From a virus (taxonomy: Duplodnaviria > Heunggongvirae > Uroviricota > Caudoviricetes), in the IMG/VR virus record IMGVR_UViG_2703719355_000011, positions 1 to 4,960 of that record: a DNA stretch of 4,960 nt; one strand, 5' to 3'. This document shows, one piece after another, positions 1,135 to 4,960 of the stretch. Under the pieces are notes generated by a model. That model did not search any database and was not told the origin of the DNA. It saw only the letters and a list, made by a program, of their open reading frames with translations. The position numbers and the translations under genes were made by a program. Within the stretch, counting starts at the first letter, position 1. Each line of letters begins with the position of its first letter.

Positions 1135-1166
1135 GCGTAACAGTTATCACAGTAAAGGGTGAGACA

Positions 1167-4100
1167 ATGGGCAAAGGTGGCGGCAAGGCGCACACGCCGG
1201 TTGAGGCAAAGGACAATCTTAAGTCCACGCAGATGATGAGCGTGATTGATGCGATTGGTGAAGGGCCGATTGAAGGTCCGGTGAAGGGGCTGCAGAGTAT
1301 CCTGGTGAACAAAACCCCGCTGACGGACACGGACGGTAATCCTGTGATACATGGTGTGACAGCGGTCTGGCGCGCCGGGGAGCAGGAGCAGACACCACCT
1401 GAAGGCTTTGAGTCCTCCGGGGCGGAAACCGCACTGGGCGTGGAAGTGACGAAGGCAAAGCCGGTGACGCGCACCATTACGTCCGCGAACATTGACCGCC
1501 TGCGGGTCACCTTCGGGGTGCAGTCACTGTTGGAGACCACCTCAAAGGGCGACCGTAATCCCTCTTCTGTCCGACTGCTGATTCAGTTACAGCGTAACGG
1601 TAACTGGGTGACGGAAAAGGATGTCACCATTAACGGCAAGACCACCTCGCAGTTTCTGGCGTCGGTGATTCTGGATAATCTGCCTCCCCGCCCCTTTAAC
1701 ATCCGGATGGTCAGGGAGACGGCGGACAGCACCACGGACCAGCTGCAGAACAGAACGCTGTGGTCGTCATACACCGAAATCATCGATGTGAAACAGTGCT
1801 ACCCGAACACGGCCATTGTGGGGATGCAGGTGGATGCGGAGCAGTTTGGTGGTCAGCAGATGACGGTGAACTACCATATCCGCGGTCGCATCATCCAGGT
1901 GCCGTCAAACTATGACCCGGAAAAACGCACGTACAGTGGTATCTGGGACGGCAGTCTGAAACCGGCATACAGCAACAATCCGGCCTGGTGTCTGTGGGAC
2001 ATGCTGACTCACCCGCGCTACGGCATGGGAAAACGTCTGGGGGCGGCGGATGTGGACAAGTGGGCGCTGTATGCCATCGGGCAGTACTGCGACCAGATGG
2101 TGCCGGATGGCTTCGGGGGCACCGAGCCGCGGATGACCTTCAATGCGTACCTGGCACAACAGCGTAAGGCGTGGGATGTTCTCAGTGATTTCTGCTCGGC
2201 GATGCGCTGTATGCCGGTATGGAACGGTCAGACGCTGACGTTCGTTCAGGACCGCCCGTCGGATGTGGTGTGGCCGTACACCAACAGCGATGTGGTGGTG
2301 GATGATAACGGCGTGGGATTCCGCTACAGCTTCAGTGCCCTGAAGGACCGGCACACGGCGGTGGAGGTGAATTACACCGACCCGCAGAACGGCTGGCAGA
2401 CCTCCACGGAACTGGTGGAAGACCCGGAAGCCATACTGCGCTACGGGCGCAATCTGCTGAAGATGGACGCGTTCGGCTGTACCAGCCGCGGTCAGGCCCA
2501 CCGTGCCGGACTGTGGGTGATAAAGACCGGACTGCTGGAAACGCAGACGGTGGATTTCACGCTCGGGTCTCAGGGGCTGCGGCACACACCCGGTGACATC
2601 ATTGAAATCTGTGATAACGACTATGCCGGGACCCTGACCGGCGGACGTGTCCTGTCCATTGATGCTGCCACCCGCACCCTGACGCTGGACCGTGAAGTGA
2701 CACTTCCGGAGACCGGTGCCGCCACGGTGAACCTGATTAACGGCAGCGGTAAGCCGGTGAGTGTGGACATCACCGAACACCCCGCGCCGGACCGGATACA
2801 GGTCAGTACCCTGCCTGATGGTGTGGAGACATACGGGGTGTGGGGACTCTCCCTGCCGTCACTGCGCCGTCGCCTGTTCCGCTGTGTCTCCGTCCGGGAA
2901 AACACGGACGGCACCTTTGCCATCACGGCGGTGCAGCACGTACCGGAAAAAGAAGCCATCGTGGATAACGGTGCCCGCTTTGAGCCGCAGTCAGGTTCCC
3001 TGAACAGCGTCATCCCACCGGCAGTGCAGCACCTGACGGTGGAGGTGAGCGCAGCTGACGGCCAGTATCTGGCGCAGGCGAAATGGGACACGCCGCGGGT
3101 GGTGAAGGGTGTGCGCTTCAGTCTGCGCCTGACCAGTGGTAAGGGAACGGATGCCAGACTGGTGACCACCGCCATCACCGCAGACACGGAGCACCGTTTC
3201 AGCGGCCTGCCGCTCGGGGAATACACCCTGACGGTGCGGGCGATAAACAGCTATGGCCAGCAGGGTGAACCTGCCACCACCACCTTCCGGATTGCCGCAC
3301 CGGCAGCACCGTCGCGGATTGAGCTGACGCCGGGCTATTTTCAGATAACCGCCACGCCGCATCTTGCCGTTTATGACCCGACGGTACAGTTTGAGTTCTG
3401 GTTCTCGGAAAAGCGGATTGCGGATATCAGGCAGGTTGAAACCGCAGCCCGCTATCTTGGCTCGGCGCTGTACTGGATAGCTGCCAGTATCAATATCAAA
3501 CCGGGCCATGATTATTATTTTTATATCCGCAGTGTGAATACTGTTGGCAAATCGGCATTCGTGGAGGCTGTCGGTCGGGCGAGCGATGATGCGGAAGGTT
3601 ACCTGGATTTTTTCAAAGGAGAAATCGGGAAAACACATCTGGCCCAGGAGCTGTGGACGCAGATTGATAACGGTCAGCTTGCGCCTGACCTGGCTGAAAT
3701 CAGGACGTCCATTACGGATGTCAGCAATGAAATCACGCAGACCGTCAATAAGAAACTGGAAGACCAGAGTGCGGCAATTCAGCAGATACAGAAGGTTCAG
3801 GTTGATACAAATAATAACCTGAACAGCATGTGGGCTGTGAAGCTGCAGCAGATGCAGGACGGACGCCTTTATATCGCGGGTATTGGTGCCGGTATTGAGA
3901 ACACCCCTGACGGCATGCAGAGTCAGGTGCTGCTGGCGGCAGACAGGATTGCGATGATTAATCCTGCGAATGGCAACACAAAGCCGATGTTTGTTGGGCA
4001 GGGCGATCAGATATTCATGAACGAAGTGTTCCTGAAACGCCTGACGGCTCCCACCATTACCAGCGGCGGTAATCCTCCGGTATTTTCCCTGACACCGGAC

Positions 4101-4640
4101 GGGCGGCTGACGGCGAAAAATGCCGATATCAGCGGTAACGTGAATGCGAACTCCGGGACGCTCAACAACGTCACGATTAACGAGAACTGTCGGGTTCTGG
4201 GAAAACTGTCCGCGAACCAGATTGAAGGCGATCTCGTTAAAACAGTGAGCAAAGCTTTCCCCCGGGACTCCCGTGCACCGGAACGGTGGCCATCAGGGAC
4301 CATCACCGTCAGGGTTTATGACGATCAGCCCTTTGACCGGCAGATTGTTATTCCGGCGGTGGCATTCAGCGGCGCTAAACATGAGCGGGAGAATAACGAT
4401 ATTTATTCGTCATGCCGCCTGATAGTACGGAAAAACGGTGCTGAAATTTATAACCGTACCGCGCTGGATAATACGCTGATTTACAGTGGTGTTATTGATA
4501 TGCCTGCCGGTCACGGTCACATGACACTGGAGTTTTCGGTGTCAGCATGGCTGGTAAATAACTGGTATCCCACAGCAAGTATCAGCGATTTGCTGGTTGT
4601 GGTGATGAAGAAAGCCACTGCAGGCATCACGATTAGCTGA
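1167..4640 (+). CDS. J: Tail tip / host specificity protein J (central tail fibre, lambda gpJ family), 1157 aa
   Basis: Track ORF 1125..4640; the start is more likely the in-frame ATG at 1167 ([22 protein letters not shown]...), preceded by the purine-rich AAAGGGTGAG (1154..1163), whereas 1125 lies inside the upstream hairpin. The N-terminus and many internal blocks (e.g. [103 protein letters not shown]) match lambda gpJ as I recall it. Size and position after K-I and before lom fit. Confidence 0.96.
3015..3302 (+). other. Fibronectin type III-like domain within J (approx. aa 617..712)
   Basis: Segment [42 protein letters not shown]...[28 protein letters not shown] has the length and alternating beta-strand pattern (W...Y.L.V.A) typical of FN3 domains reported in gpJ-family proteins. 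Assigned by eye, not by a profile search. Confidence 0.5.
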
Positions 4641-4659
4641 ATTTTATAACCCAGATACG

Positions 4660-4686
4660 GGCGCCAGAAATGGTGCCTTTTTTATT
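4660..4686 (+). terminator. Rho-independent terminator-like hairpin (7-bp stem with one G-U pair, GAAA tetraloop, T6 tract) between J and lom
   Basis: Seen directly: GGCGCCA (4660..4666), GAAA (4667..4670), TGGTGCC (4671..4677), then ttttttatt (4678..4686). It begins 20 nt after the J stop (TGA 4638..4640) and ends 22 nt before the lom ATG. Confidence 0.55.
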
Positions 4687-4707
4687 GCAGAAAAGCGAGA
4701 GGTAATT

Positions 4708-4960
4708 ATGCGTAAAGTTTGTGCAGCCATTTTGTCCGCAGCCATCTGTCTGTCCGTATCCGGTGCGCCTGCATGGGCATCTGAACATCAGTCCACGCTG
4801 AGCGCGGGGTATCTCCATGCCTCGACGAACGTTCCCGGTAGTGATGATCTGAACGGGATTAACGTGAAATACCGTTATGAGTTTACGGACACTCTGGGAA
4901 TGGTGACGTCATTCAGCTATGCAGGAGACAAGAATCGCCAGCTGACCCGTTACAGCGATA
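4708..4960 (+). CDS. lom: Lom-like outer membrane protein (Ail/Lom/PagC/OmpX beta-barrel family), N-terminal 84 codons; 3' end lies beyond the window
   Basis: ATG at 4708 preceded by GAGAGG (4696..4701); the frame is open to the window end, so it is absent from the stop-bounded ORF track. The translation (MRKVCAAILSAAICLSVSGAPAWASEHQSTLSAGYLHASTNVPGSDDLNGINVKYRYEFTDTLGMVTSFSYAGDKNRQLTRYSD) has a signal-peptide-like N-terminus (hydrophobic core, APAWA-SEH cleavage-like site) and closely resembles lambda Lom as I recall it. Position directly after J matches lambda. Confidence 0.92.
   Translation, partial: MRKVCAAILSAAICLSVSGAPAWASEHQSTLSAGYLHASTNVPGSDDLNGINVKYRYEFTDTLGMVTSFSYAGDKNRQLTRYSD

Follow-up and report, generated by a model that had tools for sequence, protein, structure and literature searches.

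A lambda-like E. coli prophage tail segment whose J protein very probably carries a module-exchanged, OmpC-docking receptor-binding domain of the 1A2 class

We conclude that the DNA analyzed here (the window, a whole stretch of 4,960 nucleotides) is very probably the K-I-J-lom segment of a lambda-like E. coli prophage, whose tip attachment protein J ends in a module-exchanged receptor-binding domain (RBD) of the 1A2 class that docks onto OmpC and not onto LamB. The receptor class is OmpC; the genetics and a sister-class structure have been published, and the feature is already known. This class has been experimentally established and is in use in engineered delivery vectors, and the RBD is very common in E. 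coli lambdoid prophages, including many Stx-converting phages, so it carries little weight as a discovery. The initial annotation of this DNA had read the divergent C terminus of J as the signature of receptor switching; it was right that the domain belongs to a non-LamB class, but this is a common and already characterized RBD type and not a fresh case.

The K-I-J-lom segment and its J protein

The window is identical to the full length of contig CYGN01000121.1 (4960 bp) in the draft assembly GCA_001286505.1. Its gene order is K, I, J, lom, all on the + strand as in lambda, and the genes were recognized by the Pfam families NLPC_P60, Lambda_tail_I, the J domains, and Ail_Lom. The partial K and lom genes are also covered by gene calls on the contig.

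1-353, + strand: 3' part of a tail gene K homologue (NlpC/P60 peptidase; Pfam NLPC_P60, E 5.7e-9), running off the contig start
251-931, + strand: tail assembly gene I homologue, 226 aa (Pfam Lambda_tail_I, E 1.8e-16)
932-1166, + strand: I-J spacer, 235 bp (blastn gap at 922-1155 against lambda)
1102-1125, + strand: terminator-like hairpin in the I-J spacer (ACAGGCATCC-TCCG-GGATGCCTGT, 10 bp stem, then a T-run)
1167-4640, + strand: gene J, tip attachment protein or central tail fibre, 1157 aa, intact ORF (phmmer, Pfam)
4659-4678, + strand: terminator-like hairpin and T-run between J and lom (GGGCGCC-AGAAAT-GGTGCCT, then TTTTTT; a consensus match only)
4708-4960, + strand: 5' part of a lom-like outer-membrane protein gene (Ail/Lom; Pfam Ail_Lom, E 1.9e-44), running off the contig end

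The K and I genes share 73.6% nucleotide identity with their lambda counterparts over nt 1-921 (blastn), and gene I overlaps K just as it does in lambda. The I-J spacer differs: it is 235 bp in the window and 60 bp in lambda, the two sequences are unrelated, and the window spacer is 93-99% conserved across many Stx1a and Stx2a converting phages. Its coding content is limited to a 41-codon ORF (1037-1162). An Rfam search of the whole window gave no match at E <= 1, indicating that the conserved spacer is not a known RNA family. The spacer hairpin is strong and lies midway along the late operon, only ~40 nt ahead of the ATG of J. Beyond J, the lom-like gene begins 68 nt past the stop codon, and its first ~125 nt do not resemble lambda lom at the nucleotide level.

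The J ORF runs from an ATG at 1167 to a stop at 4638-4640. A phmmer comparison with the lambda gpJ structure (8iyk_J) gave E = 0 and 1814 bits over residues 1-834 and 864-1156, and six Pfam J domains are present in the lambda order (FNIII-A_GpJ, Phage-tail_3, Ig_J, Ig_J_second, Phage_Tail_Tip, and Ig_GpJ_C). By its full-length similarity, domain order, and gene context, J is a lambda-type tip attachment protein.

To locate the differences between the two proteins, we took identities from a global alignment of the window J with lambda gpJ (NC_001416), as follows.

J residues 1-800: 76.6% identity
J residues 819-900 (3621-3866, + strand): 24.4% identity with 28 inserted residues; second divergent block, equivalent to the lambda alpha-helical shaft and the top of the beta-prism
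J residues 901-1004: 76.9% identity
J residues 951-1004 (4017-4178, + strand): 90.7% identity; lower central straight fibre, conserved, forming the junction just upstream of the probably exchangeable RBD
J residues 1005-1157 (4179-4637, + strand): 42.5% identity; RBD, an Ig-like beta sandwich assigned to the "1A2" OmpC-binding class
J residues 1029-1157 (nt 4251-4637): 41.1% identity; the peptide singled out by the initial annotation

The initial annotation had held that J tracks lambda closely until its final ~130 residues, and that these residues diverge, and only these. The divergence of the final residues was confirmed by the 41.1% identity of residues 1029-1157 against 76.6% for residues 1-800; at the rate of residues 1-800, the binomial probability of so few matches is 6e-18, and tblastn gave 41.8% for the last 134 aa. 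Close tracking up to that point was an overstatement, as the whole protein is only 68.8% identical to lambda gpJ, and confinement to the C terminus did not hold, given the 24% identity and 28 inserted residues of block 819-900 and the unrelated I-J spacer. The transition itself is abrupt, and the true break lies ~60 nt upstream of where it had been placed, at nt ~4191. Blastn aligned the window with lambda over nt 1-921, 1156-3657, 3827-4190, and 4835-4898 only; nucleotide similarity is lost after nt 4190, where the protein reads NNVTI before the break and NENC after it, and returns at 4835 inside lom. We considered gradual divergence from the lambda RBD as the main explanation and rejected it, because identity falls abruptly from 90.7% (residues 951-1004) to 42.5% at the very point where nucleotide similarity disappears altogether.

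The shaft block (819-900), and not the receptor domain, is the part of J most divergent from lambda. We assigned it to the shaft and beta-prism using published lambda domain limits (PMC11101478), and blastn against lambda found no nucleotide similarity over nt 3658-3826 within it. The lambda shaft flips and partly refolds upon receptor binding, and a shaft longer by ~28 residues would lengthen the fibre.

The receptor-binding domain and its receptor class

The C-terminal domain had been taken by the initial annotation to be the receptor-binding part of J, and Pfam bore this out: Ig_GpJ_C (PF12421) matched residues 1027-1157 over its complete profile (1-135 of 135) with E 1e-37 and 129.5 bits, against a cut-off of 26.2. 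Over the RBD, the window protein is 42.5% identical to lambda, 64.4% to A8, 65.1% to phi330, and 97.4% to 1A2, the last of which is the closest gpJ of known receptor and is of the OmpC type. When the last 134 aa were compared by tblastn with 50,697 phage records, 57 records showed at least 90% identity, among them the EHEC "PPompW" prophages, Stx1a and Stx2a converting phages, JLK-2012, PhiR46_1, and vB_EcoS-640R1, whose RBD is 99.3% identical to that of the window. A second group followed at 58-62%, and lambda and 434-type J proteins at 38-42%. The VT1-Sakai J gene is 96% identical in DNA to the window J over its full length. For the natural carriers of this RBD we found no receptor data; vB_EcoS-640R1 is merely named, and the PhiR46_1 paper contains no data on a J receptor.

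Structural comparisons pointed in the same direction. The C-terminal 294 aa searched against the PDB matched "A8 gpJ 713" (9wca/9wcb) best, with 401 bits compared with 330 bits for lambda. We also built an AlphaFold2 model of residues 985-1157 from a 17-sequence alignment; the search for related proteins returned mostly J fragments under ~300 aa, and frameshifted or mis-joined fragments (P0001, P0025, P0035, P0039, and P0061) were left out. The model had a mean pLDDT of 79, exceeding 80 over most of the beta sandwich. Foldseek against the PDB placed 9wcb, 9wca, 8xck, and 8xcj at the top (E 6e-19 to 2e-16, TM 0.70-0.71), with nothing comparable beyond these four. The best match was the OmpC-bound 9wcb (E 6e-19, TM 0.70), and the predicted domain is a member of the lambda-J RBD fold, nearest to the OmpC-bound structure. 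Both the alignment to gpJ proteins of known receptor and the structure prediction had been proposed by the initial annotation as checks.

Evidence on the receptor comes from the gpJ chimera 1A2. Both 1A2 and A8 are lambda gpJ in which the C-terminal part was swapped for natural E. coli phage J variants, in order to redirect lambda particles from LamB to OmpC (Brödel et al., Nature 2024, PMC11338833). Over the RBD, 149 of 153 residues are identical between 1A2 and the window, with equal length and no gaps, although the 1A2 protein had to be reconstructed from a published codon-optimized, OCR-damaged DNA listing by joining tblastn blocks in three frames, and one or two of its residues could be misread. 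Going from the window to 1A2, the four substitutions are S1028G, R1074K, N1076H, and N1077T. The recoded segment of 1A2 appears to start at about NADISG/NVNA, equivalent to window residue ~990/991, which would place the specificity segment at window residues ~991-1157.

The assay host for 1A2 was MG1655 ΔlamB ΔompC carrying one of 23 plasmid-borne OmpC variants (PMC11338833). Delivery succeeded with 20 of the 23, including G17, yielding 76-99% GFP-positive cells at the top MOI, while G1, G2, and G40 gave no more than 2% (PMC11338833). The G1 values are identical to the OmpC-MG1655 data in Extended Data Figure 2, and the main text describes 1A2 as efficient on EDL933 OmpC and not on MG1655 OmpC (PMC11338833); the title of PDB entry 9wcb identifies G17 as the EDL933 OmpC variant. 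The particles thus work without LamB, and whether they do so depends on the OmpC allele when nothing else in the host changes, which is direct evidence for OmpC as the receptor of 1A2. The same chimera is used in EB003, an anti-STEC (anti-O157) delivery vector (bioRxiv 2025.02.28.640725). The earlier proposal of a receptor other than LamB is therefore supported by ~97% identity to a LamB-independent, OmpC-allele-dependent protein. For the exact allele in the window, we infer OmpC dependence and LamB independence from these near-identical and sister proteins.

Three loops of the RBD are candidates for contact with the receptor.

4383-4403, + strand: ERENNDI, residues 1073-1079, homologous to phi330 hairpin E953-S962
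4512-4523, + strand: HGHM, residues 1116-1119, a variable loop after the conserved DMPAG; positions 1116, 1118, and 1119 vary
4551-4571, + strand: LVNNWYP, residues 1129-1135, mapping to phi330 A1015-P1020; positions 1129-1134 vary

In a published AlphaFold3 model of phi330, hairpin E953-S962 occupies the interior of the OmpC barrel, and A1015-P1020 lies at the rim (PMC12502783). These segments map to window residues 1073-1078 (ERENND) and 1130-1135 (VNNWYP), respectively; a contact role for the HGHM loop is inferred. Among 19 ungapped class members, variable positions cluster at 1009-1011 (the junction), 1073-1079, 1116-1119, and 1129-1134, a pattern expected if the loops read the polymorphic outer loops of OmpC. 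Every position of loop 1073-1079 varies within the class, and three of the four differences from 1A2 (R1074K, N1076H, and N1077T) fall there, which flags this loop as the likely site where OmpC-allele specificity is tuned.

As these three differences lie in a predicted barrel loop, the range of OmpC alleles, and conceivably the choice of porin, could differ from that of 1A2. One reading is that the window allele uses OmpC with a variant set unlike that of 1A2 (for example, K-12-type) or, less likely, uses OmpF, owing to its R1074/N1076/N1077 loop and S1028. We consider this improbable. The loop is homologous to the phi330 hairpin predicted inside the barrel, it is the most variable stretch in the class (HERENND, HEREHTD, HERENSD, HPRKDKE, and others), and A8 and 1A2 are known to accept differing OmpC variants (PMC11338833); against this, only 4 of 153 residues differ, the remaining loops match 1A2, most alleles are probably shared given that 1A2 already takes 20 of the 23 variants, and no data for either the 1A2 or the A8 class point to a porin other than OmpC. 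That the allele accepts OmpC variants which 1A2 cannot use, such as the K-12, G2, and G40 types, is unlikely but plausible. If it does, the loop variants of E. coli prophages would amount to a naturally occurring collection of specificities for OmpC alleles, moulded by an arms race in which ompC polymorphism is the other side.

A second reading, that the domain still binds LamB and its divergence reflects drift or adaptation to LamB alleles, is very improbable. The domain does have the fold of the lambda RBD (8xck and 8xcj, TM 0.71) and conserves 42.5% of its residues, but the 1A2 segment, 97% identical to it, functions in ΔlamB cells and follows whichever OmpC allele is supplied. The domain is also without nucleotide similarity to lambda, and its identity over residues 1005-1157 is far below the 80% that the initial annotation had set as the level that would speak against a new receptor.

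Prevalence and module exchange

The OmpC-docking RBD type is widespread. Of 5426 complete E. coli genomes, 3378 contain DNA of the RBD type by megablast (80-100% identity); genomes having any match carry a median of two such places, and 361 records matched the RBD DNA at 99% or better. J-like sequence overall was present in 4938 genomes, with up to 15 J-like places in a single E. coli genome. J bodies bearing the same RBD share between 89% and 97% DNA identity with the J body of the window.

Mosaicism of lambdoid phages is well known. Two observations are consistent with exchange of the RBD as a recombination module: its sharp boundary lies beside a 54-residue segment that is 91% conserved with lambda, and the same RBD is found on J bodies of differing identity. 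We suggest that the class originated and is spreading through module exchange, with one breakpoint in the conserved fibre segment at nt ~4190 and the other end in or beyond lom. The block unlike lambda, nt 4191-4834, spans the RBD, the J-lom spacer, and the 5' end of lom, all of which may be transferred together. Residue 1028 of the window (nt 4248-4250, in TVSKAF) is serine, as in the A8/phi330 class (TVSKSF), whereas 1A2 and each of the 19 full-length class members retrieved have glycine. The serine hints that a tract was exchanged by recombination or conversion between these two OmpC classes, close to where the domain begins.

Among the best-ranked complete E. coli genomes, the best full-length match to the window was 96.1% identical. 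Lambdoid prophage regions present in several copies typically yield short contigs like this one, and the window J could be a consensus or chimera of several prophage copies produced by a collapsed assembly. Three database copies of the RBD (P0025, P0035, and P0039) are frameshifted within residues ~1030-1075, showing that E. coli genomes often contain the module in a decayed state. It is nonetheless hardly credible that the segment is a defective prophage or assembly chimera whose J has no current adsorption function, since, despite the isolated 4960-bp draft contig, the up to 15 J-like places per genome, and the frameshifted copies, K, I, and J are unbroken and follow one another as in lambda, and the RBD DNA is 99.8% identical to copies in complete genomes.

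An exchangeable 1A2-class RBD has two practical consequences: J C termini from draft genomes can be assigned a receptor class by sequence, and nt ~4190 provides a precise module boundary for domain swaps.

Comparison with known receptor-binding systems

The trigger mechanism is presumably common to lambda and the window J. In lambda, four bottom loops of each RBD enter LamB and the three RBDs spread, and the change runs through the beta-prism and the helical shaft, opening the tail tip (Ge and Wang, PMC11101478). By PDB entry title, 9wca is the A8 gpJ713 fibre in its closed form and 9wcb its complex with EDL933 OmpC; the closed and OmpC-bound open states of A8 suggest that the same scheme operates with OmpC. 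In the window, the last ~150 residues of J would form a trimeric Ig-like RBD at the tip of the central tail fibre, and by analogy with lambda-LamB and A8-OmpC, its bottom loops may insert into the OmpC barrel or rest on its rim. OmpC binding would then push the three RBDs apart, and the change would pass up the beta-prism and helical shaft, so that the tail tip opens and DNA is ejected.

The lambda RBD (8xck, closed; 8xcj, with LamB) shares its fold (TM 0.71) and its C-terminal position with the window RBD; it differs in its receptor, LamB, and is 42.5% identical in protein without nucleotide similarity. A report on Drexlerviridae-type GpJ classes calls the lambda C-terminal domain not comparable (bioRxiv 2026.04.02.716166). 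The closest system, 1A2, is set apart by the rest of the protein: it carries the N-terminal ~965 residues of lambda and the shorter lambda helical shaft, whereas the window J has its own.

The A8/phi330 class has the same fold as the window RBD at 64-65% identity, and its receptor is OmpC. The A8 RBD shares 98.7% identity with its counterpart in vB_EcoS_phi330 (PV189401), a natural Stx2a siphophage that forms no plaques on Keio ΔompC unless Plac-ompC is supplied (PMC12502783). The N-terminal junction NNVTINENC and the C-terminal strand are common to this class and the window. The first hairpin of A8/phi330, ENFNSNNQQSYW, is 5 residues longer than the window ERENNDI, a second loop is 4 residues shorter than in the window, and A8/phi330 use K-12 OmpC as well, which 1A2 does not. 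With 64.4% and 65.1% identity, two loop indels, and no long ENFNSNNQQSYW hairpin, the window RBD lies outside the A8/phi330 class and belongs to a sister class.

Phage 434 J, known from lambda h434 hybrids, is likewise an OmpC user of the same domain family as the window RBD, but its last 134 aa are only 42% identical to those of the window (H67), making it a separate RBD class. OmpC is thus recognized by several distinct classes of J.
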